Positions 2,084-64,000 of a stretch of DNA of 64,000 nucleotides are shown here, in pieces. Position 1 is the first letter of the stretch; each line of letters opens with the position of its first letter. The position numbers and the translations under genes are program-made. The notes beneath the pieces are model-generated. The model had not been told where the DNA came from. It searched no databases and saw only the letters and a list, made by a program, of their open reading frames with translations. Origin of the DNA: Escherichia coli (GTDB taxonomy: Bacteria; Pseudomonadota; Gammaproteobacteria; Enterobacterales; Enterobacteriaceae); NCBI RefSeq assembly GCF_011045215.1, contig NZ_CP049201.1. One strand, 5' to 3'.

Positions 2084-2110
2084 CGCGCTTCGCTTGTCTG
2101 CTGCTTCGCC

Positions 2111-2133
2111 GGGGCATAAAAAATTTATGCCCC
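2111..2133 (+). other. Perfect 10-bp-stem hairpin (ggggcataaa/tttatgcccc) 28 bp after the portal stop; possible PQ-operon 3' structure
   Basis: Inverted repeat read directly from the sequence. There is no downstream T-run, so it is not called an intrinsic terminator. Confidence 0.4.
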
Positions 2134-2688
2134 GACTCTCCAGCTCTTGTATCAATCAGATAATTTCACGACGCTTTCCTGCTTATTGCCATCATCGACA
2201 GTCAGACTCTTACGCAATCCCACCGCGTTGACTGCATGTTCTCGCCGTCTCAGTGCGATTTTGACGGCCTTACCTTTCACCCCATCAAATCAAAAGCCCT
2301 CACGTCTTTTTCACGCTCAGCGTGAGAAATACAGCCATTCTGTTGTGTCGCTGCGACATCGTTCAGGGGATGCTATTTACCCCCTGAAACGCGGGCTGTT
2401 CCCCCGTCACCTGCGCGCAGAAAAAACGCGTTTTTTTGTGCACGCACGGTTCCCTGACGGATCCAGCCGCCACGCGGGTCGGAAGGGCAAAAAGTCGTTC
2501 AAAAAAATTGTGCAAATTTGTGCACTTTTGTGCAGGTAAGCATGCCCATATATTTGACCGTAGCTTGCCTTTGATGTAGTTTATGCGTCACAAAAACCAC
2601 AAAACGTGGTTATGATTTCTATGAGGGGGTTGATATGAAAAAAATGTATGATGAATTTGATGGTTTCTAAGCTACGTTGACCTCTAAT

Positions 2689-2717
2689 GAGGCGGGGATT
2701 TGCTCCCCGCCTTTTTT
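2689..2717 (+). terminator. Rho-independent terminator immediately upstream of the low-GC cassette
   Basis: GGCGGGGA-tttgc-TCCCCGCC stem-loop (8-bp GC-rich stem) followed by TTTTTT. Confidence 0.8.
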
Positions 2718-2731
2718 ATGGATGAAATAGG

Positions 2732-3229
2732 ATGAACCCAATAACACTACAAATCATCAGCAATGCTATTGTTCTGCTTGGCGTTTTGGTTGCCATTGGA
2801 ACCATTATCTACAATGTGCGTACCGCAAAAAAAACTCAAACGGCCAACTTTCTTTTTGAGAGTCGGCAAGATATGCAATATATAGAGTCATTGCATACCC
2901 TGAAACAAGTGCATCGTTCAGGCAAATCATTTCGTTCTTATGTTTTTCCTTGTGATGGTTGTACAATAACAGATGAGGAAATGGCCGAGCGTCGAAAATT
3001 TCAATATATTTTAAATTTTTACGAGCGAGTTGCTGTAAGTATTCGTGAAGGTATTTATGATGAAAAAATGATAAAAAGAACATCTTACACAACAGTTGTA
3101 GAGACATATGATATTGCCGAGCCATTAATTAAAGCAATCAGAGAAAGCATTAATTCGGATACTACATATCAAGAATTCGAATGGTTAGTAAGAAGATGGA
3201 AAGCTAATCCTTTACGGAAAAACAAATAA
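2732..3229 (+). CDS. Hypothetical single-pass membrane protein (165 aa), first gene of a low-GC cargo cassette; candidate defence/exclusion component
   Basis: ORF with an N-terminal hydrophobic helix (ITLQIISNAIVLLGVLVAIGTIIY) followed by a charged soluble domain. GC content is visibly lower than the flanking phage genes. No motif recognised. Confidence 0.7.
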   Translation: MNPITLQIISNAIVLLGVLVAIGTIIYNVRTAKKTQTANFLFESRQDMQYIESLHTLKQVHRSGKSFRSYVFPCDGCTITDEEMAERRKFQYILNFYERVAVSIREGIYDEKMIKRTSYTTVVETYDIAEPLIKAIRESINSDTTYQEFEWLVRRWKANPLRKNK

Positions 3230-3268
3230 TGTTTTACCCTTTAATTTACAAGTAACACAGGGGGAAGT

Positions 3269-4111
3269 GTGACACAGAATCCGTTTTCATTTTATGACTT
3301 TTTGGGCTATCTAATTCCAGGTGGGTTATTCCTGTTTATCCTTTTTTTGTTTTCTATTGAAATTAACCCTGTTTATATAGAAGGTATTCTTAACCACATC
3401 CTGAAATATAAAGAAATAATAAGTGTATTTATATATGTGGTATTAATTGTTCTATCATATATTTCAGGTCACTTCATATCTATTCTATCATCCTGTTTAA
3501 TTGAAAAATACATGAACAGTAAACTTGGGTATCCTTCAATTTATCTGTTTTCTAAAAGAAGCTCCCTGAAAATAAAACGACATAATACTAAGTTCAGTAT
3601 AGTTCATTTTATCCGTGGAGTTTTTTTACTTCCTGTATCAGCTTTTGATAAAGCAGAACATCATAAAACCACTCTGCATTCTATACTTATTAAAGTCTTT
3701 TGGCCGCAAATACGAGATGGTTATATAAATGTTTTTTCTGTATCTACGCTATATCGACGTAAGGGCTTGAGGGGCGATCTTTTTCGCCTTGCTTATCATT
3801 ATGTGTATGAACATTCTAAAAATCATCAGGTGAAAATGCAAAACTATGTTGCTTTGTATGGTTTTTGTAGAAACATTACATTTGTTTTTCTCGCTTCAGT
3901 CTGGTTGCTTATATGCCTGTTCCCTCTATCCTTTTTAATAGATATAAATATCAGGTTGTTACCTTTTTGTTTTCTTCTCTTGTTTTGTATTGCTGCATCC
4001 CGAGTATTTTATTATGGTTTTGTTAAGTATTATCGCCGCTATTCTCTTGAGGTTTTAATGGCATTTGCGGTACTTCAGCACGATAAAAAAACTTCGGCAA
4101 TTCCATCATGA
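3269..4111 (+). CDS. Hypothetical four-pass membrane protein (280 aa), second gene of the low-GC cargo cassette; candidate defence/exclusion component
   Basis: GTG start 6 nt after an AGGGGGA Shine-Dalgarno, 39 bp downstream of the previous gene. Four predicted hydrophobic helices (two N-terminal, two C-terminal) flank a ~110 aa basic central region. Low GC. Confidence 0.7.
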   Translation: MTQNPFSFYDFLGYLIPGGLFLFILFLFSIEINPVYIEGILNHILKYKEIISVFIYVVLIVLSYISGHFISILSSCLIEKYMNSKLGYPSIYLFSKRSSLKIKRHNTKFSIVHFIRGVFLLPVSAFDKAEHHKTTLHSILIKVFWPQIRDGYINVFSVSTLYRRKGLRGDLFRLAYHYVYEHSKNHQVKMQNYVALYGFCRNITFVFLASVWLLICLFPLSFLIDINIRLLPFCFLLLFCIAASRVFYYGFVKYYRRYSLEVLMAFAVLQHDKKTSAIPS

Positions 4112-4121
4112 TTTGAAACAT

Positions 4122-4146
4122 TGGCACCCTGTTAGCAAGGGTGCCA
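4122..4146. terminator. Hairpin between the convergent cassette gene and parR-like gene; possible bidirectional terminator
   Basis: tggcaccc-N9-gggtgcca 8-bp stem. The flanks are T/A-rich but lack a clean U-tract. Confidence 0.4.
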
Positions 4147-4194
4147 GAATGATGTGTTGGTATGTATTTTATTAGTTCAAATACAATTGTCAGA

Positions 4195-4509
4195 TTATTC
4201 TGGGAATAAGGTCTGAATATTCTTTTTTATTTTATAAAAATTGCATTCAACTCCGCTAGGCTGATTAGCCTGGTATGTTTCCTTGATGCTAACGGTATTG
4301 AAGGGGAGGTTGTCCTCTGGCCATTCGGCCATCCAGTAGGCAAATGCTGGGTTGCGCTTTATGAGTGCTAGCCCAGCCAGAAAGGCCGCGCGTTGCGCGC
4401 GGCTGCGTTCGGAGGCTGGCAGGCTATCGAGGTAATTGCACGCCTCCTGTTCACTCTTGACGGCGGCGGGCTTCAGATAGAAACTTATCCGTCTGGTTGG
4501 TGTCGTCAT
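4195..4509 (-). CDS. parR: ParR-like partition adaptor / centromere-binding protein
   Basis: 104 aa ORF directly downstream of the parM-like gene. The segment ISFYLKPAAVKSEQEACNYLDSLPASERSRAQRAAFLAGLALIKRNP resembles the plasmid R1 ParR N-terminal ribbon-helix-helix region, as recalled from memory. Confidence 0.7.
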   Translation of the reverse strand: MTTPTRRISFYLKPAAVKSEQEACNYLDSLPASERSRAQRAAFLAGLALIKRNPAFAYWMAEWPEDNLPFNTVSIKETYQANQPSGVECNFYKIKKNIQTLFPE

Positions 4510-4513
4510 TGGT

Positions 4514-5473
4514 TTACTCCTTGTTCATTGCGTACAGTCCATTAACCAGAGCAAACTGTGGCACCCCGTCCGCGATGAAAGTCGCATTAACTCCGCAGGC
4601 TTCGCGGATAGCGGGTGCCACAATCTCCGCCCCGCCACCGACAACCATCACCCGCCCGTAACCCGAAAAAACCGCCAGCGCGCGGATCACGCGTTGTTTC
4701 AGTGTTTCTTCCTTTTCACGAATAACCGCCATCAGGCTGGCGTAATGCGCGTCATTGTGGATGTGCTGGCGCAGCCAGGCTTCATCATGGCGATGTTCGA
4801 TAATGGTATTGGCGATGTGGTGACTGGTGCGCATACCGTTAGTGGCCATCACCGACAGTACGGCATCGGCCATCAGAGAAACGCCTACGTGTGGATCGCA
4901 AAACACCTGGCTGATACCTGCCAGTTGCCCCTGGACCTTTGCCACATCCAGCGTGGTTCCGCCCAAATCCACAATCAGCAGGGATTCAAACGGACTCATG
5001 TCAGCCAGTGCCTTAAAGCCAGCCGGAATGGATTCAGGCATAACCCGTACGTTACGGATAGTGAATGCTTCGCCGTTCTGGTACTCCACCGGGCGCATGA
5101 CGTTCGCTTTTTTGCGGTTGATGTTGGCCATGTCCGGCTGTGCGTTTGTGTCGAAATATTCGCTCAGTGGCAGGGTGACAACCACATCCACTTCCTGTGG
5201 TGTGATGCCTGATTTGACCAGCGCGTGATGAATGGCAATGACATTCACATCGCTGTACTGGTATTGCGTGTCGGTCGTCTGGACAAAGCGATCGCTGACC
5301 GGATCAAAACCATAGCGCACGCCATCAACCATGTAGTTCGCGGGCTGCGTGCCACCGAACGGCGCAGACCATTCCGACTTGAAGCTGTTCGGGCTGATGG
5401 CGTTGCGGCGTTCGCCGTTCTCAGTCCATGCCAGCTTGATGTTGGTGGAGCCGTCATCGATACAAATTTTCAT
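4514..5473 (-). CDS. parM: ParM/StbA-like actin-type segregation ATPase
   Basis: 319 aa. The N-terminus MKICIDDGSTNIKLAW and motifs LIVDLGGTTLD and VMVVGGGAEI resemble R1 ParM (actin-fold phosphate and adenosine motifs). An AAGGAAAAG Shine-Dalgarno lies upstream. Confidence 0.85.
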   Translation of the reverse strand: MKICIDDGSTNIKLAWTENGERRNAISPNSFKSEWSAPFGGTQPANYMVDGVRYGFDPVSDRFVQTTDTQYQYSDVNVIAIHHALVKSGITPQEVDVVVTLPLSEYFDTNAQPDMANINRKKANVMRPVEYQNGEAFTIRNVRVMPESIPAGFKALADMSPFESLLIVDLGGTTLDVAKVQGQLAGISQVFCDPHVGVSLMADAVLSVMATNGMRTSHHIANTIIEHRHDEAWLRQHIHNDAHYASLMAVIREKEETLKQRVIRALAVFSGYGRVMVVGGGAEIVAPAIREACGVNATFIADGVPQFALVNGLYAMNKE

Positions 5474-5507
5474 GTCGCTTTTCCTTATGTTGATTAATTA
5501 ATCGTTT

Positions 5508-5613
5508 GCGGGATTCTGAAATCCCGTTTTTGCCTGTTTTATGCGCGCTTCATATATCGCGGCGCGTTTTTTGCTCATTTACGGGATTTGTGAATCCCGT
5601 TTCTGTCTGTTTT
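5508..5613. repeat. Two ~33-bp direct repeats, each containing a gggatt-N5-aatccc inverted repeat, upstream of parM; candidate parC-like centromere/promoter or plus-strand terminator hairpins
   Basis: Repeat 1 at 5508-5540 (gcgggattctgaaatcccgtttttgcctgtttt) and repeat 2 at 5581-5613 (acgggatttgtgaatcccgtttctgtctgtttt). Repeat 2 overlaps the 3' end of the gpA-like gene. Confidence 0.5.
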
Positions 5614-8373
5614 TTTGTTTCCACTGGTCAGGCTACCCTGCAGCAGGTCTGCTTTGCGGCGGGCGCGTTCAGTGGTTTCACTGATTCTCTGTGCGTGCTC
5701 TGCGTCACAAATGGCGCGCAGCATGTCAGAAAGCACGGTAACGGGTGTTTTCATGGTGTTCTGGACCTGCTGAAGTGTGGATGCCAGGCGTGCGGCGGCT
5801 TCGGGGTCTGATGCCCCGAGCTGTGCCAGATAGCTGGCGACCGGGTTATGGCGGATCTCCGTGCTGCTTACGCCGTGATTACGGCTCAGGCGCTGCCAGA
5901 GCTGCGTGATTCGGCTGTCCGGGCGGGTATCCGGTTTACGTACAATTTCAAATCCCTGCGGTGAAATGATGCTGCCGTCAACGTACAGACTGCCGCCCCG
6001 TAACAGGTGCTGCATCTGCTGTTCACCGATATGCAGGCCGAGAGATTCAGCAGACTCCCGCCATTCTTTAGCGAGTAACTCGTGGTTATCAGGCAAAGGC
6101 CGCGGCTGTTTGCGGCTCTGTGTCCAGCTCTGCATTTCATCGCTGCTGTTTTTTGCCTGTTTGTCACGAAGCGAACGCATCAGCGCCCGGCGTTCGTGCC
6201 GTTTCAGTGAGCGCATCCATTCATTCACTTCAACGCCGTCAGGAAGCTGCGGCCACGGTGCTGGCCGTTCTTCCGACTGTTCTGTCCCGCTGTTGCCTGT
6301 TTCCTGTACACGGGGACAGTTATTGCCACGAGTCCAAGGGGCGGCAGGGCCGCCCTGAAGGTCAAAACCATTTTCGCGGGCGCTGTCTTCCGCTTCCGGT
6401 TTACGTCTTACCAGCTTCCAGTTATCCGGATGCGTGCACACACGGGAGGATTCCCCGATGAGTGGTGACCAGATCCCGTAAATCTGTACGCTCTGTTCGC
6501 CGTAATCGTTCAGCTCATCTGCGAGGTCGTAGGCGGTGCGAATCAGGTAGTCTTTACGTGGAACAAGTACGCCACCCTGTTTCTCAATGTAGGTGGCAAA
6601 ACATCCGGCATCAGCGGCAGCAAGAACCGCATCCATTGCGTCATCCTTCAGCCGTTGCGGGCCTTCCGGGTTGCGTGCCATCTGGCTGGCAAGGCGGCGG
6701 AGTTCACGCCACACCTGACGGGAGGGAATGCCAAAGAACTGGAACTGGCGGACCCGGTGAAGGCGCGCCCAGCCGATGGCGCGCTCCACGCTCTCGGCCA
6801 TTGATTTACCTGTTTCGTGGTCAACGCGTGGCTTGCCCGTTTTCGGGTCGATGCCATCCACGGCACGGCTGTCCAGGTTTTTCCCAATGTAGGTGGCGAT
6901 GTAGCTGGTCGGTGTGCCTTTTGAGCCGTCGACGTACTCCGCCTTAAAGCGTGGGGTAATATCATCACCCAGCTCGTGACGATCTTCCTGAATGGCAATA
7001 TCGCGGGTGTGGGACACAATGGTGTCGATTTCTTCCGGATGAGCAAAGACCATCATATGCCAGTGCACGGTGCCGTCATGGTGAGGCTCCACCGTGCGGA
7101 TGCCATACCAGCGCAGGCCGTCGCGGTTCAGTTTCTTGCGGACCGCCGCAAAAAACGTGTTAACCAGGTAATCGCTGGAGTCGCGCATGGTGGCCCCGTT
7201 CCATTTGGGATTCGGATGACCGTTCTCCGTTGTTGCGTGGTATTTTGACGGGCAGGTGACAGTCAGAAACACCGCTCTGTCGCCACGGGCTTCGGCCAGA
7301 AGTTCCAGCCCCTTCATGGTGGCCATCATTTCTGCCTTACGGTGAACCGGGTTACTTACTCCCGCGTAATACACTGTCTCGAGATCAATCGTGAACCCGT
7401 CTTCATTTTCCAGCATGAAACTTTTCAGGAAATCGCGTGTTTTCTCGCGCTGTGCGCGAAACTCGCTTAACGCGTCCTGGCTCAGATATGGTGATGTTTT
7501 TCTGGAAACCAGACAGGCGGCGCGGAGTTGTTCTTCTCTCCACTCGCAACGTAACAGCCACAGTTTGCGTTTCCACCATTCCGCACAGGTCAGGCGAAGG
7601 ATTGCGCCCGGCAGCAGCTCCGTGTCCGGTTCGTTCCTCCGGTCTTTGTCTGTCGTCAGTGCGTCATAATGTGGAGGCATGGCGTGCAGGTGTAACGCCA
7701 TGCGGGCCAGCATCTGATACGCCTTCAGCGTTACATCCATGGTCAGTTCACCATCAGTCGCGCCAAAGCCATCGCAGAGTTTTTCGAAGGTGCTGCTGAA
7801 CATCGCCGCCGTCATGGTGGCCAGCGTCTGTATCTGGTGTTTGTTGAGCTGCGGCAGGTAAAGCAAATCGTCCAGGCGTTCGCGTCCGGCAAGGGAGCGA
7901 TAACCCGGTGTCAGCCAGCGTCCGTCAGTGCGATCCAGACGTTCGAATATTTTGCGCAGGGTTCCGCGTGCATAGCGTTCCGCCTGCCAGCTCTTTTTGC
8001 CTTTCCTGCGATCGGCTTCCTGTTTTTTGCGCAGGAAGGAGAGGTGGCGAATAAGCGGATCGCGCAGATAGGACGGCAGCAGGCGCAGCGAGGCCATGGC
8101 TTCATCCACCGCGCCGCGTGCCTGTTTTCTGGCGTCTCCTGCCAGTGTGATGGTTTTGTCCTGTTTTTCCTGTGCGTCCAGGCTTTTATTAATCAGGTTG
8201 CCCAGCGGCGTGGCGGAGAACGCCGCATCAGCCATTTCCTGGCGGCGCTCGTTCTCTGCCCGGTAGGCATCCAGCCAGGAGGAAAGCGCGGATTCAGGAG
8301 CGGGGATCCCCGTTCCTTCACGCCCCACTGCGTGGCGCGGTTGTTGCCAGTCCCTGATGTACTCTGCCGTCAT
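5575..8373 (-). CDS. Phage replication initiation protein, P2 gpA family (HUH rolling-circle endonuclease)
   Basis: 932 aa ORF containing a TVHWHMMVF motif of the HUH type. Its position after the early-operon genes matches gene A of P2/186. Confidence 0.85.
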   Translation of the reverse strand: MTAEYIRDWQQPRHAVGREGTGIPAPESALSSWLDAYRAENERRQEMADAAFSATPLGNLINKSLDAQEKQDKTITLAGDARKQARGAVDEAMASLRLLPSYLRDPLIRHLSFLRKKQEADRRKGKKSWQAERYARGTLRKIFERLDRTDGRWLTPGYRSLAGRERLDDLLYLPQLNKHQIQTLATMTAAMFSSTFEKLCDGFGATDGELTMDVTLKAYQMLARMALHLHAMPPHYDALTTDKDRRNEPDTELLPGAILRLTCAEWWKRKLWLLRCEWREEQLRAACLVSRKTSPYLSQDALSEFRAQREKTRDFLKSFMLENEDGFTIDLETVYYAGVSNPVHRKAEMMATMKGLELLAEARGDRAVFLTVTCPSKYHATTENGHPNPKWNGATMRDSSDYLVNTFFAAVRKKLNRDGLRWYGIRTVEPHHDGTVHWHMMVFAHPEEIDTIVSHTRDIAIQEDRHELGDDITPRFKAEYVDGSKGTPTSYIATYIGKNLDSRAVDGIDPKTGKPRVDHETGKSMAESVERAIGWARLHRVRQFQFFGIPSRQVWRELRRLASQMARNPEGPQRLKDDAMDAVLAAADAGCFATYIEKQGGVLVPRKDYLIRTAYDLADELNDYGEQSVQIYGIWSPLIGESSRVCTHPDNWKLVRRKPEAEDSARENGFDLQGGPAAPWTRGNNCPRVQETGNSGTEQSEERPAPWPQLPDGVEVNEWMRSLKRHERRALMRSLRDKQAKNSSDEMQSWTQSRKQPRPLPDNHELLAKEWRESAESLGLHIGEQQMQHLLRGGSLYVDGSIISPQGFEIVRKPDTRPDSRITQLWQRLSRNHGVSSTEIRHNPVASYLAQLGASDPEAAARLASTLQQVQNTMKTPVTVLSDMLRAICDAEHAQRISETTERARRKADLLQGSLTSGNKKTDRNGIHKSRK

Positions 8374-8379
8374 AGTGAT

Positions 8380-8745
8380 TTACTTCGTCATGCCATTCAG
8401 GGTGTCGCGGCAGACTGTAGCCAGCCGCTGAATTTCCAGCACGGTGTCTTCTGTGTCGGCATGGCGATGTGTGATGCGGATGCTGTCGGCAATCACATCG
8501 ACGATTGCAGAGGATGGGCGCTGGTAAATGCCAATAACGGACGGGGTGCCACCTTCAATGCGGTAAAGCCTGTAATTTCCCTCGTGGCTGTCAATCATGT
8601 AGCGACCATCAATAACAATCTTTCCGTCAGCGAGCTGCGGTACAGGCAGAGATTTCAGGTACATGTCATAACGATCACGCACGCGAGCGGCAAGATCACG
8701 TTCTGTGTTGAGCAGGTATTCAAGAAAGTCGTTGGCGAGAATCAT
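8380..8745 (-). CDS. Hypothetical phage early-operon protein (121 aa)
   Basis: ORF immediately upstream of the gpA-like gene on the same strand with tight spacing. No motif recognised. Confidence 0.55.
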   Translation of the reverse strand: MILANDFLEYLLNTERDLAARVRDRYDMYLKSLPVPQLADGKIVIDGRYMIDSHEGNYRLYRIEGGTPSVIGIYQRPSSAIVDVIADSIRITHRHADTEDTVLEIQRLATVCRDTLNGMTK

Positions 8746-8817
8746 TGCGGCAATCCTCTTGTTACAGATGTGCGAAGGCCTCCCGCCGCAAGGTGCAGGA
8801 AAGGCCCGGAACAGGAA

Positions 8818-9048
8818 TTAATGGAGTTTGTTTTGCTGCTGGATGAGCTGTTGAAGCTCGTGCAGATCATCCGCCAGATAGCTGAAAACAGAGGCGGAAT
8901 AAATGTTTGATAGTGCGTGGCTGCGCTCATGCCGCATATTGATGTGCATGATTTGCGCGACGCGTGATGCGCGGGAAAGTCTGCGGTTGATTTCAGTCTG
9001 GATGTGACGACGCTCCGCGATAGCGCGGTGCTGTTTGCGGTCTGCCAT
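8818..9048 (-). CDS. Hypothetical phage early-operon protein (76 aa)
   Basis: ORF with an AAGAGG Shine-Dalgarno ~8 nt upstream of the ATG. Basic, helical-looking sequence. Confidence 0.45.
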   Translation of the reverse strand: MADRKQHRAIAERRHIQTEINRRLSRASRVAQIMHINMRHERSHALSNIYSASVFSYLADDLHELQQLIQQQNKLH

Positions 9049-9370
9049 GGTGTGGCCTCTTTGCTCGGTGATAGAAATAACTCACCATCCAGAGTTGAGA
9101 ATCTCGGGGTGGCGAGACGTACAGGGTTCTCAACACCGGAGAGCAAAGAATCCGGCCCGACCGAAGTCGGCCCCGTACGCCCCGCCATAATTCTGACGCG
9201 AAAAAGACGTGGCAATACAGTACGCACAAAAAAACCGCTTGCGCGGTTATGCGCTTTGCTCTGTATCGGGTTGAGAATCCCGGCACCCGTTTTATGAGGT
9301 GCAGCGGAAATGTAACCTGACCGATTGAGGCATGGCAAGCGGTTTTTTTGTGTGTGCATGTTCTGGTTTC

Positions 9371-9670
9371 TTAGTGGTTCAGAAAAAAATCAAAAACCTT
9401 GTCAATGCGTTGCAGCAGCTCTTTCTGTATTGCTTCCGGCGTTTCCGGTTCGCCTGGCGCCTCCAACGTCGCGCAGAAATCCTCGATTTCATGACGGAGC
9501 GTCAGGCGAATGGCGAGAGGTGTGGTTTTGGCGTGCTCCAGCTGATCCAGCAGTGCCAGCACAGCAGACGGCGAGAGCATTGCGCGAAATGCCAGTAATT
9601 TTTGAGGAGTTGCCATTCGTTGCAGGGCAAATGCCAGTTCGCGTAGCTTCTGGTGGTTGGTGGTGCTCAT
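9371..9670 (-). CDS. Hypothetical phage early-operon protein (99 aa)
   Basis: ORF whose start overlaps the stop of the upstream gene (ATGA), typical of this operon. Confidence 0.55.
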   Translation of the reverse strand: MSTTNHQKLRELAFALQRMATPQKLLAFRAMLSPSAVLALLDQLEHAKTTPLAIRLTLRHEIEDFCATLEAPGEPETPEAIQKELLQRIDKVFDFFLNH

Positions 9671-9933
9671 GTTCTGGCTTCCTTCAGTAGCTGGTTAAAC
9701 ATGTGAGTAAGTGGATTGCTACACCCGAACGGCATCGGGTTTACGTGGTAAGAAGCCTGGCCTCCAGTTTTGCGAGCGCGACCACCTGTGCTGCGGTTTG
9801 TTCTGATGACTAAGCCGCCGCGCCAAAGTCGGCGTAACTCAGTATTAATAGCTGTGGTTGGGGTGTTCAATGCTGCGGCGATCTCTCCGCCGCTACACCC
9901 CGGATGAGTAGCGATGTAGTCCAGAATGGTCAT
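9667..9933 (-). CDS. Putative winged-helix DNA-binding protein (88 aa)
   Basis: The sequence ILDYIATHPGCSGGEIAAALNTPTTAINTELRRLWRGGLVIRT looks like a winged helix-turn-helix. Translationally coupled to both neighbours. Confidence 0.6.
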   Translation of the reverse strand: MTILDYIATHPGCSGGEIAAALNTPTTAINTELRRLWRGGLVIRTNRSTGGRARKTGGQASYHVNPMPFGCSNPLTHMFNQLLKEART

Positions 9934-10133
9934 CTGCGTGGCTCCTGTACCTGTCGGATAAGATTCACCCGCGCCACGTTGGTGGCGCAGAAGTAAGTGC
10001 CGTCAGTGAGGTAGATGTGGTGTGCATCCTTTTCCGAACGATGTTTGTCGATAGTGGTAATCAGGCGTTCGTCGACCTCGTATTCGCGCCCTCTGGAGGT
10101 AAAGCGAACGACGGGAAAATGCTTAATTGCCAT
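9930..10133 (-). CDS. Hypothetical phage protein (67 aa)
   Basis: ORF with a 4-nt overlap onto the downstream gene. Confidence 0.5.
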   Translation of the reverse strand: MAIKHFPVVRFTSRGREYEVDERLITTIDKHRSEKDAHHIYLTDGTYFCATNVARVNLIRQVQEPRR

Positions 10134-10156
10134 TGCGCCCCCTTTGTCCAGTAACC

Positions 10157-10573
10157 CTATGCGTTAAATACGGCACGTTGCGCGTCATCAATGAATACAG
10201 CTTGAGAGCGTTCTATCAGGCGGAGATTTGTCAGAAGCTCTGACTCTTTTGTGTGGTAAGGCGTTATCAGGTATTTGCCGTGCAGTTCGGCAATAATGGT
10301 GTATTGCAGCATCATTGCTGAACCAAGAATATAAATGCAGCGTCCAATGCTGGACGGATTCATGGCTGCAACTGTTGACTGTGTTTTAAGAGTGTCGATT
10401 TCTTTGCTCTGTTCCTCAATAATTTTGGCTGCGTCAGCGGTGATTTTTGCAATGGTCAGTGCGTGAAGTGCTGCCATATGTTGGCTACGCTTCACGGCAT
10501 CTTTAGCCATTTCATCTTCCGCTTCTGATATTTTTTTTAATGTGTCGATAATGCCTTCTTCTTTTGCGTTCAT
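10157..10573 (-). CDS. Hypothetical phage protein (138 aa)
   Basis: ORF with a GGAGAT Shine-Dalgarno upstream. No recognisable motif. Confidence 0.55.
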   Translation of the reverse strand: MNAKEEGIIDTLKKISEAEDEMAKDAVKRSQHMAALHALTIAKITADAAKIIEEQSKEIDTLKTQSTVAAMNPSSIGRCIYILGSAMMLQYTIIAELHGKYLITPYHTKESELLTNLRLIERSQAVFIDDAQRAVFNA

Positions 10574-10665
10574 TTTATATCTCCGTTATTTACGTGTGCG
10601 AATACCTCCGCGAATGCGGATAGTTTTCAGGTTTTCGGGTTTAATCTGGTGTTTTGTTTAAGCTG

Positions 10666-10779
10666 TTATTCGTCAGTGAAAAAGCGTTCAATCTTTTTTA
10701 CTGAATGAATAATTCGCATAATCCCAATGGCGCAGGCCACCGAAATAATCAGAACAAGCCATGAGATAAATATACTCAT
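10666..10779 (-). CDS. Possible small hydrophobic protein (37 aa, MSIFISWLVLIISVACAIGIMRIIHSVKKIERFFTDE)
   Basis: Not in the supplied ORF track; read by hand. Its ATG overlaps the stop of the upstream 80-aa gene (ATGA), and it encodes one predicted transmembrane helix. Confidence 0.35.
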   Translation of the reverse strand: MSIFISWLVLIISVACAIGIMRIIHSVKKIERFFTDE

Positions 10780-11018
10780 GCGATATTCCCCAGCTTATAC
10801 GGTTCAATGTGTTCCCCGCATTCTGCGGCACAGATCAGCTCGGAAAGTTCGTTAAGTGCATCCAGATCATCAGCGTAAAAAGCGACGTCATACAAACTCC
10901 GGATTGCCCTGGTCAATGAGTCACGGGCTGCACGTTCAGCATGAGCGCCTGATGCACTTAAGCGAAAATAAAATCGTTCAAGTGCTTTATTAATGAGAGT
11001 TTTATATTCTTTGCCCAT
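10776..11018 (-). CDS. Hypothetical phage protein (80 aa)
   Basis: ORF in the operon series. Confidence 0.5.
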   Translation of the reverse strand: MGKEYKTLINKALERFYFRLSASGAHAERAARDSLTRAIRSLYDVAFYADDLDALNELSELICAAECGEHIEPYKLGNIA

Positions 11019-11029
11019 CGCAACGCCCT

Positions 11030-11308
11030 TTAATCTGCTTTCTGAATTTCAGCTTCTGAATCCATACAAATAATTTCGATATAGGGTTCATCGCCATTAA
11101 CCTGACGTGCCTTTTCAGCTTCGCTAATGATTTCTCGTACGGTCTGGTACGGAAGCTCCACAGTCAGGCGCGTACCGTTCAGATAAACGTAAGTAGCTGC
11201 GTTTTTTTCTGATGGGACGACTCCATCAATAGCTGATGCGCGTAATAACAGTTCACCGCGAAAATCAATAAAACGGATAAATACACCTTGTGCATGCTCT
11301 TTGGCCAT
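11030..11308 (-). CDS. Hypothetical phage protein (92 aa from ATG at 11308)
   Basis: The track ORF runs to 11407, but the ATG at 11308 has an AGGTG Shine-Dalgarno and avoids overlapping the upstream gene. Confidence 0.5.
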   Translation of the reverse strand: MAKEHAQGVFIRFIDFRGELLLRASAIDGVVPSEKNAATYVYLNGTRLTVELPYQTVREIISEAEKARQVNGDEPYIEIICMDSEAEIQKAD

Positions 11309-11318
11309 AAAGCACCTG

Positions 11319-11777
11319 TTATAAATCAGCCTGTTTAATGAAATTCTGTCCGCGCAGCAGACGATCAACCGTGCGTAGCGCTTCGTACAATGTGAAATCC
11401 TGCCCAAACTGATTGTCGCCGTTGCTCAGAGCAAAAATGCGGTTTCCGGTAAATGGGTTGTGCGGGCATCTGTGAACCACGATTCCAGCTTTCTCAATCA
11501 GCCAGGTGTGTTCACCAATTTGTTTTACGGGATGGCCATCAGGTGTGGCGTGTGTTTCGCTCAAGCTGTAGCGAGAGTTGCTACGCGATGCACTGTTAGC
11601 GAAACGGTTAGCATGGTGTTCCGCCCCGTTGCGGAAGCGTTGCTGTGAAGAATTGCACTGTTGCTTCATGTCAAAAACTCCGTACCTATTTACTTCCCCG
11701 GCATAACGCCCATTTTCAAAGTAATTGCGACGAAATCCCGTGTTGTGGGGCTTGCCATTTCGCTGCTGCTTACTCAT
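11319..11777 (-). CDS. Hypothetical phage protein (~152 aa from ATG at 11777)
   Basis: The track ORF starts at a TTG at 11804. The ATG at 11777 (MSKQQ...) has a GAGG Shine-Dalgarno and does not overlap the upstream gene. Confidence 0.5.
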   Translation of the reverse strand: MSKQQRNGKPHNTGFRRNYFENGRYAGEVNRYGVFDMKQQCNSSQQRFRNGAEHHANRFANSASRSNSRYSLSETHATPDGHPVKQIGEHTWLIEKAGIVVHRCPHNPFTGNRIFALSNGDNQFGQDFTLYEALRTVDRLLRGQNFIKQADL

Positions 11778-11788
11778 TTTTCGTGCCT

Positions 11789-11995
11789 CTACCCGATGAG
11801 CCAAATAACAAACGCTGTGAGCACCGCACCAATGGTGATCGGAAAAAGACCTCTGGCATAAGCGGCGAGGTAATGAACGTTGAGAACAATAAAGCGTTCT
11901 TTTTGTCCTGTTAGCTTGCTAAGCAGATAAATCGCTATTACACCCACTTCTAGGAATACAAGGTCCAAAATGGCGCTGGTGATATTGTTGGTCAT
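11789..11995 (-). CDS. Small membrane protein (68 aa, two hydrophobic helices)
   Basis: ORF directly downstream of the cox-like gene. Hydrophobic composition. Confidence 0.5.
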   Translation of the reverse strand: MTNNITSAILDLVFLEVGVIAIYLLSKLTGQKERFIVLNVHYLAAYARGLFPITIGAVLTAFVIWLIG

Positions 11996-12001
11996 TTATG
12001 A

Positions 12002-12289
12002 TTAAAGCCCCAGCCACAACAACCATGCATCGCGGCGTTCTTTCGGCTGATCAAAAAACGCTTTGCGCATACCTGCGTTAAATGCTGGCAGATATACCCA
12101 GTTTTCTGATGCTCGCGTCTTCACTGAACCTGGTTTCACAAAGTCAATCGTTGGTAATTTTGCAGCGTCAATCATGGTTCTGACGGTTGATTCTTTGCGA
12201 CCAATCATCTTGGCAAATAGTTGATATGGCACCGCTTCAAGTGGATATGGTGCTACCTGAATGAACCCCTCAAGCTCTGATTCGCTCAT
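12002..12289 (-). CDS. cox: Cox-like excisionase / lytic-switch regulator (P2 Cox family)
   Basis: The segment PYQLFAKMIGRKESTVRTMIDAAKLPTIDF...NWVYLPAFNAGMRKAF...RDAWLLWLGL resembles remembered P2 Cox. It is the first gene of the leftward operon, divergent from the repressor gene. Start chosen at MSESE (AAGGAG Shine-Dalgarno); the track ORF extends to 12325. Confidence 0.75.
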   Translation of the reverse strand: MSESELEGFIQVAPYPLEAVPYQLFAKMIGRKESTVRTMIDAAKLPTIDFVKPGSVKTRASENWVYLPAFNAGMRKAFFDQPKERRDAWLLWLGL

Positions 12290-12404
12290 TGTGGTAATCT
12301 CCTTAATTCGTCCAAATGGCCCCAAATGGCTTATATAGGCTTATTTTGGCTATTTGAATGTTTTGTATTACATGTAACCCAATAGCGTGGAGTTTAGATC
12401 ACAT
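12290..12404. promoter_or_regulatory. Divergent early/repressor promoter-operator region (Pe/Pc-type immunity switch)
   Basis: 115-bp AT-rich intergenic region between the divergent cox-like and C-like genes. It carries tandem CCAAATGGC repeats (12312-12320, 12322-12330) and GGCTTA repeats. Confidence 0.6.
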
Positions 12405-12725
12405 ATGATCCATAAATCAAGCCTTGGAGAAAAACTTCGCCTGATTCGAGAGGCAGAGGGATTGTCACGTAGAGAGATGGAAGAGGTGACAGGGGTATCT
12501 CAAAACAATCTCAAAAATTATGAAATATTGGGAAGAATGATACCTGGAGAAACGCTACTCCTGATTTTGAATCATCCTCGTTTTCGGAAGTATTCGGATT
12601 GGGTGATGTTTAATCAAACTAATGCTGCGACGGGGCAGATTGCTCCGCCTCTCTCTCTTGATGGCTTCTTCGATTCGGAGGGCGATCAGGTTTCAACCGA
12701 AACAAACCAAAAATCACCCCGCTAA
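12405..12725 (+). CDS. Immunity repressor, P2 C-like (HTH)
   Basis: The segment LSRREMEEVTGVSQNNLKNYE...RFRKYSDWVMFNQTNAATGQIAPPLS resembles remembered P2 C (LSRQQLADLTGVPYGTLSYYE...QFTKYTLWFMTNQIAPESGQIAPAL). Start placed at the ATG at 12405; the track GTG at 12387 lacks a Shine-Dalgarno. Confidence 0.75.
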   Translation: MIHKSSLGEKLRLIREAEGLSRREMEEVTGVSQNNLKNYEILGRMIPGETLLLILNHPRFRKYSDWVMFNQTNAATGQIAPPLSLDGFFDSEGDQVSTETNQKSPR

Positions 12726-12821
12726 GGCCAGAAAACTGGTTAGACCTGCTCTTTGTCTGGTCTGATTATTGCTGGAAAGAGGCTGGAGAAATTGTAGAGC
12801 GGTTCATTGGAGGGCTTCGCA

Positions 12822-13826
12822 ATGTCAATTAAGAAGCTCGAAGATGGTCGTTATTTGCTGGACATCAGGCCGAACGGACGCAAGGGAAAGCGCGTGCGTA
12901 AGGTATTTGACAAAAAATCGGTAGCGGTGGCCACTGAACGCTACATCATGGCGAACGCTGAAAAGCGGGAATATATACAGGGCTACCGTGATCGCCGAAC
13001 GCTAAATGATTTGCTTGAGTTGTGGTGGATGTATCACGGTCAACACAGGCGTAAGGCGGAAGAAGACCGAAAACAACTGCGCAACATAATCAATGAGCTT
13101 GGCGCTGATATGCAGGCTGTGGATCTTGATAAGCTGAAAATTATCGCGTGGCGTTCTCAAAAGATAGCTGATGGATTGAAACCGTCATCTGCTAACAGAT
13201 ACATGAATCGGTTATCCGGAATGTTTACCGTACTGAAGAAAATAGGCCTCTGGGATGCAGAACATCCGGTAAGGGGAATTTCTATTCTTTATGTATCTCC
13301 ACGAGAAATGGCTTTCCTGTCCCAGAAGGAAGTGGCGCTATTGCTCGATACACTGGAGGGCGATTACTGGCGTGTTGCGCTTTTGTGTTTAAGCACGGGG
13401 GCGCGCTGGAGTGAAGCTTGTAAGCTTCGTGGTGAACAGATAGTTCATAACCGTGTAACGTTTCTTGAAACCAAAAATGGCCGAAAGAGAACAGTGCCAA
13501 TTTCGCAGGCAGTTTGTGAGGCGATCAAAACCAGAGAAACAGGCGGCTTGTTTGAGGTGAAGTACCGGGAATTCTGCTTGGCGCTGAAAAGAGTTAAGCC
13601 CGATTTGCCAAAAGGCCAGGCTGCACATGTGCTGCGGCATACGTTCGCCAGCCATTTTGTGATGAACGGAGGAAACATTATTGCGCTTCAGAAGATTCTT
13701 GGCCACGCAACCATTCAGCAAACAATGGCATATGCACATTTTGCACCGGATTACCTGCAGGATGCGGTGGCCCTTAATCCGCTGAAAGGTGGCGTGAGTG
13801 TCCACGCAGTGTCCACGGGGGATTAA
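12822..13826 (+). CDS. int: Tyrosine integrase, P2 Int family
   Basis: The N-terminus MSIKKLEDGRYLLDIRPNGRKGKRVRK and C-terminal HVLRHTFASHF...MAYAHFAPDYLQDAVALNPL (catalytic His/Arg/Tyr region) closely resemble remembered P2 Int. GGAGGG Shine-Dalgarno 7 nt upstream of the ATG; the track TTG at 12807 is an alternative start. Confidence 0.9.
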   Translation: MSIKKLEDGRYLLDIRPNGRKGKRVRKVFDKKSVAVATERYIMANAEKREYIQGYRDRRTLNDLLELWWMYHGQHRRKAEEDRKQLRNIINELGADMQAVDLDKLKIIAWRSQKIADGLKPSSANRYMNRLSGMFTVLKKIGLWDAEHPVRGISILYVSPREMAFLSQKEVALLLDTLEGDYWRVALLCLSTGARWSEACKLRGEQIVHNRVTFLETKNGRKRTVPISQAVCEAIKTRETGGLFEVKYREFCLALKRVKPDLPKGQAAHVLRHTFASHFVMNGGNIIALQKILGHATIQQTMAYAHFAPDYLQDAVALNPLKGGVSVHAVSTGD

Positions 13827-13984
13827 TTTTATATAGCCTGAAACGGCTTAAAGGGCGATACTGAATAACAATTTTTCAGTATTGCCCGTCTAAATGGTTA
13901 TGTTGTTATCTGTATGATTATGAATGTTTTTTCAGATTAAACAGCAGTTTGCAAATGGGCGTTTGTTAATAAAGGAGCCTTAGA

Positions 13985-15142
13985 TTGTCAGAGACTGAAA
14001 AAGGGTTAAAAATCCTTGTTGATGAAAATATGCCTTATGCCCGCGACTTATTTAGCCGTTTGGGTGAGGTGATCGCGGTTCCCGGGCGTCCAATCCCCGT
14101 CGCTCAACTGGCAGACGCGGATGCGCTGATGGTGCGTTCGGTCACGAAAGTGAATGAATCTTTGCTGGCAGGAAAACCCATTAAATTTGTTGGCACTGCC
14201 ACTGCGGGGACCGACCATGTCGATGAAGCATGGTTGAAGCAGGCGGGAATTGGTTTTTCCGCTGCACCTGGCTGTAATGCGATTGCGGTGGTGGAATATG
14301 TTTTCTCCTCCCTGCTGATGCTTGCCGAACGCGATGGATTTTCACTGCACGAGCGTACCGTGGGGATCGTAGGCGTTGGTAACGTTGGTCGGCGTTTACA
14401 GGCACGACTGGAAGCGTTAGGGATTAAAACCTTACTTTGCGATCCGCCTCGCGCCGACTGTGGGGATGAGGGTGATTTCCGCTCGCTGGATGAGTTAGTC
14501 CAGCGCGCGGATATTCTGACTTTCCATACGCCACTCTTCAAAGACGGGCCGTACAAAACGCTGCATCTGGCGGATGAAAAACTGATCCGTAGCCTGAAGC
14601 CCGGAGCGATTCTGATTAACGCCTGCCGTGGCGCAGTCGTCGATAATACCGCGCTGCTGACCTGCCTGAATGAAGGCCAGAAGTTAAGCGTAGTGCTGGA
14701 TGTCTGGGAAGGCGAACCGGAACTAAATGTGGAATTGCTGACAAAAGTGGATATCGGCACGCCGCATATTGCAGGCTATACCCTGGAAGGTAAAGCACGC
14801 GGTACTACGCAAGTGTTTGAAGCCTATAGCAAGTTTATTGGGCATGAACAGCACGTTGCGCTGGATACATTACTGCCCGCGCCAGAGTTTGGTCGCATTA
14901 CTCTGCATGGACCGCTCGATCAACCGACGCTGAAAAAGCTGGTGCATTTGGTGTATGATGTGCGCCGCGATGACGCACCGTTGCGTAAAGTCGCCGGGAT
15001 ACCGGGTGAGTTCGATAAACTGCGCAAAAACTATCTTGAGCGCCGTGAATGGTCATCTCTGTATGTAATTTGTGATGACGCCAGTGCGGCATCATTGCTG
15101 TGTAAACTGGGTTTTAACGCCGTTCATCATCCGGCACGTTAA
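13985..15142 (+). CDS. pdxB: Erythronate-4-phosphate dehydrogenase
   Basis: The translation matches remembered E. coli PdxB throughout ([21 protein letters not shown]...). Start uncertain: TTG at 13985 with an AGGAG Shine-Dalgarno, or ATG at 14012. The codon preceding Lys-Ile-Leu is TTA, not a start codon. Confidence 0.9.
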
Positions 15143-51651: not shown

Positions 51652-51703
51652 CCGAATTTCGATTAACGCTCAGTCTCTGACTGAGAAAACTGGAAGCATG
51701 CTA

Positions 51704-60363: not shown

Positions 60364-61821
60364 ATGACAATAACTCCACAAAACCTGATCGCACTGCTAC
60401 CGTTGCTGATCGTCGGCTTGACGGTGGTGGTTGTGATGCTCTCCATTGCGTGGCGACGCAATCATTTCCTCAACGCTACGCTCTCGGTTATTGGGCTTAA
60501 CGCGGCGCTGGTTTCGCTCTGGTTTGTTGGCCAGGCGGGCGCTATGGACGTTACGCCGCTGATGCGCGTTGATGGTTTCGCCATGCTTTACACCGGGCTG
60601 GTATTGTTGGCGAGCCTCGCCACCTGTACTTTCGCCTACCCGTGGCTTGAAGGCTATAACGACAACAAGGATGAGTTCTACCTGTTGGTGTTAATTGCCG
60701 CGCTGGGCGGGATCCTGCTGGCGAATGCAAACCATCTGGCGTCTCTGTTCCTCGGTATTGAACTGATCTCTTTGCCGCTGTTTGGCCTGGTCGGTTACGC
60801 TTTCCGCCAGAAACGTTCGCTGGAAGCCAGTATCAAATACACCATCCTTTCTGCCGCAGCGTCTTCTTTCCTGCTGTTCGGTATGGCGCTGGTGTATGCG
60901 CAGTCTGGCGACCTGTCGTTTGTCGCGCTGGGTAAAAACCTCGGCGACGGTATGCTCAACGAGCCGCTGTTGCTGGCAGGTTTCGGTCTGATGATTGTTG
61001 GCCTCGGCTTCAAACTCTCTCTGGTGCCGTTCCACCTGTGGACGCCAGACGTATACCAGGGCGCGCCTGCGCCGGTTTCCACTTTCCTGGCGACGGCGAG
61101 CAAAATCGCTATCTTCGGTGTAGTGATGCGTCTGTTCCTCTACGCACCGGTGGGTGACAGCGAAGCGATTCGTGTGGTGCTGGCGATTATCGCCTTTGCC
61201 TCCATCATCTTCGGTAACCTGATGGCGCTGAGCCAGACCAATATCAAACGTCTGCTCGGTTACTCATCTATCTCTCACCTCGGCTATCTGCTGGTGGCGC
61301 TGATTGCGCTGCAAACTGGCGAGATGTCGATGGAAGCGGTAGGGGTTTACCTGGCCGGTTATCTGTTCAGCAGCCTCGGCGCGTTCGGCGTGGTCAGCCT
61401 GATGTCCAGCCCGTATCGTGGCCCGGATGCTGATTCCCTGTTCTCTTACCGCGGTCTGTTCTGGCATCGTCCGATCCTCGCGGCGGTGATGACGGTGATG
61501 ATGCTGTCTCTGGCCGGTATCCCGATGACGCTGGGCTTTATCGGTAAGTTCTACGTGCTGGCGGTCGGTGTCCAGGCACACTTGTGGTGGCTGGTGGGTG
61601 CCGTGGTTGTCGGTTCGGCAATCGGCCTCTACTACTACCTGCGCGTGGCGGTGAGCCTGTACCTGCACGCACCGGAACAACCGGGTCGCGATGCACCGTC
61701 AAACTGGCAGTACAGCGCGGGCGGTATCGTGGTGCTGATTTCTGCACTGTTGGTACTGGTGCTGGGTGTATGGCCACAACCGCTGATTAGCATTGTGCGG
61801 TTAGCAATGCCACTGATGTAA
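60364..61821 (+). CDS. nuoN: NADH-quinone oxidoreductase subunit N
   Basis: 485 aa antiporter-like subunit. Confidence 0.95.
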
Positions 61822-61845
61822 TCTGTTAGTTTGTAAGTCAGAAAG

Positions 61846-61872
61846 CCGCCGACATGTTCGGCGGTTTTTTTT
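61846..61872. terminator. Bidirectional intrinsic terminator between nuoN and convergent yfbM
   Basis: ccgccga-catgt-tcggcgg stem followed by eight Ts, with an A-run on the 5' side for the opposite strand. Confidence 0.9.
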
Positions 61873-61887
61873 GGTGCCCTGACACCA

Positions 61888-62391
61888 TCACCCAACAATA
61901 ACCGTCAGCGCATGATTCCCTTGTCGCAGCATACGTCGATACGCGCTAATCAGCTTTTCCATATCAAGCATGATCGAAGCAAAGAGTTGCCCCTCTAACT
62001 CTTCTGAAAAGGTCACTCCCGGATAAATCTCCATTTCATTGAGTCGCTTAATGGAAAACTTTTTACGCAGCTCACTTCGATCCAAAGCTTCCAGTCGGTC
62101 GATTGTCGCGGCTAACTCCTGATTCCATGTCAATCCCAGGAAACCATCTATACCATCTTCGAGGCTGTGTTCACCAAGCACGGCACGACTCAGCGGATCA
62201 TTCTTCGCTGGATCGAACGCAGAGGTGCCTGTCAGCCCAAAGTGTAAAAAATCCCAGCGTTTATCAATATCCAGTCGGCGTAATCCTGAAAGCGTGTCAT
62301 GTATATTATCCATCAAAGGTTTTTCAGTAGACTCAAGCAGTTGGTTAATCTTTTCTGAGTCAATTTCTGCAAAATAACCAATCATTCCCAT
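61888..62391 (-). CDS. yfbM: DUF1877-family protein YfbM
   Basis: 167 aa starting MGMIGYFAEIDSEKINQLL, recognised as E. coli YfbM. Confidence 0.75.
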   Translation of the reverse strand: MGMIGYFAEIDSEKINQLLESTEKPLMDNIHDTLSGLRRLDIDKRWDFLHFGLTGTSAFDPAKNDPLSRAVLGEHSLEDGIDGFLGLTWNQELAATIDRLEALDRSELRKKFSIKRLNEMEIYPGVTFSEELEGQLFASIMLDMEKLISAYRRMLRQGNHALTVIVG

Positions 62392-62493
62392 TTATTTTTC
62401 CTCCATTGAATTTTATGTTTCGCATCTTAAAACAGACGAGGGAAAATAAAATGTGCATGTCGCTTTTTCTGGACCCGCCTCGAAAAATTTTTA

Positions 62494-63117
62494 TTATTTA
62501 CTGTTGTATAACAAAGTTATAACCCCATCCACTACCTGAGCCATTTTCTGATAATTCAATCTGTCTCCGATATCACCGGGCAAGTAGTATTGTTTATTAC
62601 GATAAAAAGCGGTGTCAGTAATCATTACGGCGGGAATATCGTATTGCCAATAATTAAGGTGGTCAGAGAAATCAATACCGTGAATAAACCATGGGGCATT
62701 CATAGAATAAACAGATAAATCCCGGGATGATAACAATGCCGTTTTTACCTGACGAACGGCGTTGATATCCTGTATTCTGCCGACCAGGCAATAAAGTCCC
62801 CCCGATCGGGATAAAGCCAGGACATTGCGGGTAAGGGTAATCCTGGCTACCAGGCGCAGAGTCGTAATAGCCAATCGGGGACGCCCTGCGCGGTAACTCT
62901 GGCACCGCTACTGACAAAGAACTCTTTTATATACTCTACGGACCTATTCAGATTATCAATATTGTCGGCATTACGTGGATGCACAGTTTGTGTAAGATAA
63001 CGAACTGTTTTTTCTAATTGCTCAGGACTGACGTGTCGGGGCGTTGGCGATAATGCAGTGACCCAGGGTTGGTAAAAATAATCAGAGGGAGTGAAATCAG
63101 AAATAATATAACAAAAG
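62494..63117 (-). pseudogene. yfbL: Disrupted peptidase-like gene (yfbL-type): the reading frame is split over at least three frames
   Basis: Minus-strand segments in different frames: a signal-peptide-like N-terminus (MEKIPFVILFLISLPLIIF... ending at a stop), ...PEQLEKTVRYLTQTVHPRNADNIDNL..., and two overlapping ORFs (62672-62917 and 62494-62874). Consistent with frameshifts in a once-continuous ~320 aa gene. Confidence 0.5.
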
Positions 63118-63517
63118 GAATTTTTTCCATATATAAATTATCAATAAAAGACGTTATTTTATCATTATTTATAATGAGTTATGAGTGTTTGTTTTATTAC
63201 GGTTGTTAGATCTATACAAAAAGTATCTTTTACAGTGGCTTCGCTATTTTAAAAAGGAATTCATATAAGAAAAATATAATTATGTTATTTATTGGCAGAT
63301 TGAGTTGACAGGGGGCAGAACTCTGAGGGTAAGAAAAGTCAGCAACAACAATCCACTACATCAACAGACCAGCAATCGCGTGCCGAGATACGCTGGAAAT
63401 ACCCGAAGATTGAACTGGCGGAAGGTGTGACTGACATCAGTCAGTGATGACTTTTTAGTAAACTATGTTCGACCAGTCAGCATATTTACTGACTGGTCGA
63501 ATTAATTAACAATGATG

Positions 63518-64000
63518 TTAACTTACTCTTTTGCTTGATGCTCTATTTTGGGGTTGTGAGTGTTTTATTTCTAAGTTTCTATAATAATGATTGATATTTG
63601 CATCGCCATATTTATCTAAATAACAATTTCTGTTTACCTGTCGATGTTGAAAATCAATTTCGTACTGCTCTTCTGCTGAATATTTTTTAAATCTGTCAGC
63701 ATAGTTTTTTAATAACGTATAGGGGGCGCTGTCAGAATTGCTTTCCCTTTGTTCAATCACTTCCTGGGCTGCCATGCACACAAATGCACCGCAACTTTGG
63801 CTTAAGTATTGCTGAAGATCGGCATGTAAAAATATTATCTCTGGTTCGGTTAAATGAACTGTTATATTCTTATTATTCGACATTTCTCCCATGAGTTCAG
63901 AATTGAAACTATTAATGATACGCTTAAGTGAATTTTCTTTCTCATGGCCTAGTGCACGCAATGAGTTGAATATGACGCATTTTATTTGTTGTGTATTATT
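63518..64000 (-). CDS. Hypothetical protein in an AT-rich region; 5' end lies beyond the window
   Basis: The frame stays open upstream of the track TTG at 63961 to the window end, so the gene is truncated by the window. Low GC; no motif recognised. Confidence 0.4.

Follow-up and report, generated by a model that had tools for sequence, protein, structure and literature searches.

The window analysed here is a stretch of 64,000 nucleotides from the Escherichia coli contig NZ_CP049201.1, and close to its end, between nuoN and elaD, it contains a degraded copy of the peptidase gene yfbL. The genes and features of this region are the following:

60364–61821, plus strand: nuoN, from the listing of open reading frames
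61888–62391, minus strand: yfbM, intact, 167 aa, from the same listing
62494–63130, minus strand: the whole yfbL pseudogene remnant, from the ATG at 63130 to the TAA at 62496–62494
63131–63517: non-coding stretch between the ATG of the remnant and elaD
63262–63447, plus strand: scar of yfbK, the gene of a vWA-domain protein, divergent from yfbL (blastn/tblastn against K-12 yfbK)
63462–63495: near-perfect hairpin with a 13-bp stem between elaD and the yfbK scar, a self-complementary blast hit (TTCGACCAGTCAG-TAAATATG-CTGACTGGTCGAA)
63518–64000, minus strand: 3' part of elaD, continuing past the end of the window

The yfbL remnant has a length of 637 bp, compared with 972 bp (323 aa) for the intact gene, and yfbM begins 102 bp past its stop codon. 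In transcriptional order the remnant precedes yfbM; the initial annotation had placed it downstream. Its true start is the ATG at 63130, not position 63117. The naming of the gene as yfbL is borne out both by synteny (elaD ... yfbL-yfbM-nuoN) and by 92–96% nucleotide identity to K-12 yfbL. Position and identity together mark the window copy as the E. coli yfbL orthologue, with yfbM and nuoN on one flank and elaD on the other; in K-12 the gene (b2271, 'putative peptidase YfbL', 323 aa) occupies the corresponding position in the order elaD-[yfbK]-yfbL-yfbM ... nuoN. Identity to intact yfbL amounts to 92–96% on either side of a large internal deletion (94.2% to K-12 over the 5' stretch 63083–62877 and 96.2% over the 3' part of yfbL plus yfbM), so that the split-frame pattern described below is not due to chance.

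The window falls within the E. coli/Shigella clade: its stretch 38000–62400 (24.4 kb) has a match in all complete E. coli genomes except one, at up to 99.4% identity and with no identical match. The YfbM protein is found unchanged, under the name 'YfbM family protein [Escherichia coli]', on at least 1000 contigs. For the 2.2-kb stretch that we used as a query, the top overall identity to any complete genome was 98.2%. The part of elaD that lies in the window (63518–64000) reads open. In several other genomes, among them NCTC9966, AR_0077 and OkiPb01680, a frameshift in elaD is annotated, and N54 and R3 lack the gene altogether. The hairpin at 63462–63495 was probably a terminator once shared by the convergent genes elaD and yfbK. 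An Rfam search of 61800–64000 yielded no known RNA or regulatory element.

Three-frame translation showed that the yfbL-homologous sequence uses all three frames of the minus strand with four frame switches, and no single continuous frame leads from start to stop. The initial annotation had described a split over three minus-strand frames with a signal-peptide-like N-terminus, a middle frame and two overlapping C-terminal ORFs, and the ORF listing and our translation agree with it on all of these points:

63014–63130, minus strand: 38-aa ORF with a hydrophobic, signal-peptide-like start (MEKIPFVILFLISLPLIIFTNPGS... up to a stop)
62847–62984, minus strand: middle yfbL-like ORF in a second frame (YFYQPWVTALSPTPRHVSPEQLEKTVRYLTQTVHPRNADNIDNLNRSVEYIKEFFVSSGARVTAQGVP)
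62672–62917, minus strand: 81-aa C-terminal ORF containing IGYYDSAPGSQDYPYP
62494–62874, minus strand: 126-aa C-terminal ORF with a TTG start, containing VGRIQ...LLYNSK and the stop, overlapping the 81-aa ORF

When the homology to intact yfbL is followed instead of the ORFs, the remnant resolves into five segments:

63076–63130, minus strand: segment 1, in the frame set by the ATG (63130), with the start codon and an N-terminus that resembles a signal peptide (MEKIPFVILFLISLPLII)
62877–63073, minus strand: segment 2, yfbL residues ~21–87 in the second frame (YQPWVTALSP...AQGVP; YQPWVTALSPTPRHVSPEQLEKTVRYLTQTVHPRNADNIDNLNRSVEYIKEFFVSSGARVTAQGVP)
62829–62876, minus strand: segment 3, residues 197–212 (IGYYDSAPGSQDYPYP), again in the frame of the ATG
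62787–62828, minus strand: segment 4, residues ~213–226 (AMSWLYPDRGDFIA), in the second frame
62494–62786, minus strand: segment 5, residues ~228–323 (VGRIQDINAV...LLYNSK) and the stop at 62494–62496, in the third frame

Segment 1, a stretch that is highly variable between alleles, differs from the intact alleles by 6 bp in-frame near 63120, in the signal-peptide region. The small ORFs in three frames are mechanical by-products of this frame path, which was created by decay, and since the ORF maps vary between remnant alleles, no new conserved reading frame has arisen.

The lesions were mapped by alignment to the intact yfbL of K-12 (972 bp) and of AR_0077, the latter being an intact yfbL on the window's own upstream haplotype. 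Both references place the lesions identically, as one 326-bp and three 1-bp deletions, all of which change the frame:

63074–63078, minus strand: 1-bp deletion in a T-run, T5 versus T6 in intact alleles; first frame switch
62877/62876, minus strand: junction of the internal 326-bp deletion, corresponding to nt 262–587 of K-12 yfbL
62829/62828, minus strand: 1-bp deletion, CCCGGC to CCCGC; third frame switch
62787/62786, minus strand: 1-bp deletion, GCCGTGG to GCCTGG; fourth frame switch

The 326-bp deletion begins with codon 88 and ends two bases into codon 196 and, as 326 is not divisible by 3, it shifts the frame as well. It is this deletion, and not the frameshifts alone, that constitutes the decisive lesion. 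The initial annotation had attributed the inactivation to frameshifts: the gene is indeed inactivated and frameshifts are present, but the main lesion had been overlooked, and its estimate of at least two frameshifts understated a damage of four frame-changing lesions. Neither of the homopolymer positions it had pointed to holds an indel of this kind. The A6 run at 63007–63012, near 63,000, is the same in intact yfbL, the first shift being located in the T5 run at 63074–63078, and the slip suspected near 62,880 turned out to be the junction of the 326-bp deletion. With 326 bp missing, resequencing cannot give back one continuous frame. A repeat-mediated origin of the 326-bp deletion was considered and rejected, as no direct repeat was seen at the junction in the K-12 alignment; an ATTACG hexamer is found at the left edge of the deletion and again 8 bp inside its right edge, out of register.

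Intact YfbL matches the Pfam family Peptidase_M28 (PF04389) over residues 95–317 with 90.6 bits (E = 1.4e-25, cut-off 21.3), and in NCBIfam it shows weak, sub-threshold matches only. For the frame-corrected remnant of 211 aa and for the 126-aa ORF no Pfam match was obtained at E≤0.01, the frame-corrected remnant likewise had no NCBIfam match, and by domain score the remnant does not rank as a functional M28 member. Intact YfbL, a member of the family by sequence, aligns with the solved M28 aminopeptidases 2EK8 and 3B3T/1AMP, the last two entries representing the leucyl aminopeptidase of Vibrio/Aeromonas proteolytica. The established metal site of the Vibrio enzyme consists of His97, Asp117, Glu152, Asp179 and His256, with Glu151 as general base. 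Counting along the alignment, which is a sequence-based and not a structural mapping, gives H113, D133, E166, E195 and H294 as the predicted equivalents in YfbL, and E165 as the general base. Residues H113, D115, D133, E165/E166 and E195 all fall inside the deleted residues 88–196; of the five predicted zinc ligands the deletion leaves one, and the predicted catalytic Glu is lost with the other four. At the position of the predicted fifth ligand, His294, the alignment shows a TAC codon for Tyr in the window (62584–62586, minus strand). His294 stands opposite His256 of the Vibrio aminopeptidase, and YHLPGDT of YfbL aligns with YHTPNDT of 2EK8. Tyr at position 294 also occurs in TUM13936, though not in TB06052, O157:H7 or NCTC9966. 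Compared with K-12 yfbL, the window copy thus lacks codons 88–196 and carries the three 1-bp deletions and His294Tyr in addition; compared with the M28 enzymes, it keeps the flanks of the domain, whereas the stretch with the His, Asp, Glu-Glu and Glu/Asp of the two-zinc site is lost. On this mapping the remnant has no co-catalytic metal site. Because the catalytic core is gone, undoing the three 1-bp deletions would not bring the peptidase back, and as judged from its sequence the remnant cannot encode the peptidase and would yield no useful product.

These observations also bear on programmed ribosomal frameshifting, by which the frame changes would be read through to give a full-length product. 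Apart from the T-run at the first shift nothing speaks for such a mechanism, which would require four shifts at sites that vary between alleles, and even a perfectly frame-corrected product would still be without the catalytic core and matches no family. The probability of this reading is practically negligible.

The distribution of the allele was determined by targeted sequence queries against 5,426 complete E. coli genomes. A core segment of K-12 yfbL is present in 3,311 of them, while about 2,115 are without it, which corresponds to an intact gene in ~61% and a dead gene in ~39% of E. coli. A 211-bp query comprising the deletion junction and both downstream 1-bp deletions was found at ≥99% identity in 1,374 records and at 95–99% identity in 813 further records; genomes with an intact gene show up in this query as two joined pieces at 90–95%. 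In an even sample of 60 genomes we counted 37 with full-length yfbL, 22 with the exact 326-bp gap and one with another truncation, the carriers of the gap including O157:H7, O55:H7, O121 and BL21(DE3). Multiple alignment showed the junction to be base-identical in TUM13936, TB06052, O157:H7 FRIK2455 and NCTC9966. Both downstream 1-bp deletions are common to TUM13936, TB06052 and O157:H7 and are missing in NCTC9966; the T-run has five Ts in the window, TUM13936 and NCTC9966 and six in TB06052, O157:H7 FRIK2455, K-12 and AR_0077. The 4,145 genomes that cover at least 80% of the 2.2-kb query were rejected as a count of the arrangement, because pieces up to ~1.6 kb apart had been joined, and intact and deleted loci were lumped together.

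The initial annotation had offered two explanations for the broken frame, a real pseudogene or local sequence errors. If the gene were intact in the organism and the breaks were sequencing or assembly errors at homopolymers, the 326-bp deletion would have to be explained differently, as it is no homopolymer event, and its junction agrees base for base among complete assemblies that were made independently, in different laboratories and on different platforms, with ~2,100 genomes lacking the yfbL core. The downstream 1-bp deletions lie inside the 211-bp stretch that is ≥99% identical in 1,374 records, and at neither position is there a long homopolymer (GG became G in one case, a single G was lost in the other). 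What does suit an error is the T-run at 63074–63078, which varies in length between published genomes; T-runs are error-prone on some sequencing platforms. Being polymorphic between genomes (T5/T6), this run is the sole lesion that could be a read error, and the verdict is unaffected by it. Sequencing error is excluded for the 326-bp deletion and for the two downstream 1-bp deletions, and that the organism should nevertheless possess an intact gene is most improbable.

Of the two explanations it is the pseudogene that stands: the locus carries disabling lesions relative to intact orthologues, the deletion and the downstream 1-bp deletions recur in independent genome assemblies, and in all remnant-bearing RefSeq records that we examined the locus is annotated as a pseudogene, 'frameshifted'. 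The PGAP entries for an M28 or hypothetical pseudogene between yfbM and elaD (RJ646_RS07775 in TUM13936, A8V32_RS17880 in O157:H7 FRIK2455) represent the same allele as the window, with which they share the 326-bp junction and the two downstream 1-bp deletions, the differences being minor (T5/T6, the length of the A/T-run after the ATG, and point substitutions). This yfbL allele is a common, inherited pseudogene that RefSeq already annotates. For annotation purposes the fragments belong under one pseudogene and not under several ORFs named 'hypothetical protein', 'aminopeptidase' or 'M28 family peptidase', and the lesion is better termed an internal deletion than 'frameshifted'.

Protein records for the fragments do exist. 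E. coli records include ORFs identical to those of the remnant, and closely related ORFs come from Shigella flexneri, boydii and dysenteriae. For the exact 126-aa ORF there is a single record, from a metagenome contig. A C-terminal ORF of 123–126 aa is found in most of the remnant alleles examined and is called a protein in public records, by some submitters an 'M28 family peptidase' or 'aminopeptidase', which would suit a re-use of the remnant, with the 126-aa ORF (62494–62874) or another fragment serving as a new small non-catalytic protein. The 126-aa ORF is, however, the original C-terminal frame preceded by 29 codons of out-of-frame junk, its start varies by allele (with 139–140-aa ORFs in NCTC9966 and PapM-32-1), and it has no Pfam match. 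Amino-acid changes build up freely, the metal ligand His294 included, and half an M28 domain without its central strands would be unlikely to fold. Weak promoter-like matches are present inside the remnant, yet the 6 found compare with 5.0 expected in shuffled sequence, and neither promoter- nor terminator-like matches in the remnant rose above the shuffled-sequence level. We regard re-use as very unlikely, although with the 126-aa ORF surviving in many alleles some residual product is conceivable.

The order in which the locus decayed can be read from alleles that carry only part of the lesions. Of yfbK the scar retains ~40 codons from the N-terminus, 21 bp from the interior and ~13 codons at the end, with ~1.5 kb missing, and the scar junction is found in 2,520 of the 5,426 genomes, about 400 more than are without the yfbL core. 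In AR_0077 the yfbK scar occurs together with an intact 972-bp yfbL, from which it follows that yfbK was lost before yfbL. NCTC9966 has the 326-bp deletion and neither of the two downstream 1-bp deletions, indicating that the large deletion came before these two.

We are highly confident that what is left of yfbL here is genuine, old and non-functional, the result of a stepwise decay of yfbK-yfbL. The intact gene encodes a secreted or membrane-anchored zinc peptidase of the M28 family. In the first step its divergent neighbour yfbK was deleted, leaving the scar; in the second, one 326-bp deletion took yfbL codons 88–196, the core of the M28 domain; and in the third, the dead gene gathered three 1-bp deletions, the His294-to-Tyr change and an apparent surplus of amino-acid-changing substitutions. 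The dead allele then spread by descent and recombination, so that the locus now has two common states in E. coli and Shigella, of which this is one. Evidence contradicting the stepwise decay was not found in this analysis. The locus illustrates how a gene decays step by step, with the intermediate stages still found in living strains: yfbK lost, then the yfbL core lost, then small indels.

The constraint on the coding sequence was estimated by the Nei-Gojobori method. dN/dS ranges from 0.14 to 0.25 between intact alleles (K-12, N54, R3) and is 0.93 for the window against K-12 and 0.25–2.2 for the window against other remnant alleles; with 8–27 substitutions per class, the comparison is indicative only. 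The direction of these values would fit a relaxed selection after inactivation, of which they are an indication. The remnant is kept at a similar length (~640 bp) across very many genomes. Neutral persistence due to slow deletion would be enough to account for the remnant and fits the similar length; possibly the remnant may also be kept for transcription signals needed by the intact yfbM downstream of it.

The surroundings of the remnant differ between haplotypes. When the yfbK-scar haplotype (window, AR_0077) was compared with the yfbK+ haplotype (K-12, N54, R3), the ~300 bp at 63084–63385, which take in the 5' scar of yfbK, the space between yfbK and yfbL and the opening ~18 codons of yfbL, showed 67–72% identity, while the rest of yfbL and yfbM is 92–98% identical in all haplotype pairs. 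The divergence of this segment is far deeper than species level, which points either to import or to a very old alternative version of it, with the breakpoint near codon 19 of yfbL. A further difference is that K-12 has both yfbK and the yfbN-yfbO-yfbP island and the window has neither. At the site of the island only 17 bp (61870–61886) lie between the nuoN-side and the yfbM-side homology, where K-12 holds an island of 2.56 kb. The direct nuoN-yfbM junction is present in 4,213 genomes, including the yfbK+/yfbL+ strains N54 and R3. A loss of yfbN-yfbO-yfbP in this lineage was rejected, since the island-free state is the majority; the island of K-12 is the minority state and probably an insertion.

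Natural inactivation of yfbL at this locus has occurred at least once more. In E. coli MSB1_3B the gene is disrupted by IS1 (3021–4471 of its locus), and the IS1 with an adjacent deletion took the 3' part of elaD, yfbK and the 5' part of yfbL; this event does not involve the 326-bp deletion and is independent of it. According to a 2025 preprint, K-12 strains with yfbL or yfbO knocked out (Keio) are resistant to phage N4, complementation restores susceptibility, and cross-resistance does not extend to seven further phages (bioRxiv 10.1101/2025.09.29.679331). A full-text search brought up only 12 papers that name yfbL, several of them dealing with unrelated topics. One could speculate that the loss of yfbK-yfbL is a recurrently selected change that alters the susceptibility to N4-like phages and would explain the coexistence of intact and dead alleles (~61%/39%). 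That yfbL was inactivated independently at least twice, by the 326-bp deletion and by IS1 truncation, with yfbK lost first, leads in this direction; we consider the idea unlikely. If the link between yfbL and N4 holds, natural yfbL nulls make up ~40% of E. coli, BL21(DE3) and O157:H7 among them, and are usable as a test set; phage pressure could then have a part in shaping the polymorphism. In itself the locus is an ordinary pseudogene of little import beyond annotation hygiene.

Two observations concern other parts of the window. Within the nuo operon the Rfam motif 'nuoG RNA' was identified at 51654–51696 on the plus strand (50.3 bits), as expected for E. coli. The first part of the window (1–14008) is not colinear with the region upstream of pdxB in E. 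coli PS10-3 and matches the end of a P2-family prophage in strain KSC9 at 99.9% (integrase, replication endonuclease, portal, terminase, ParM); the Rfam matches in this part are a C4 antisense RNA at 9105–9192 and isrK at 9228–9302, both on the minus strand.
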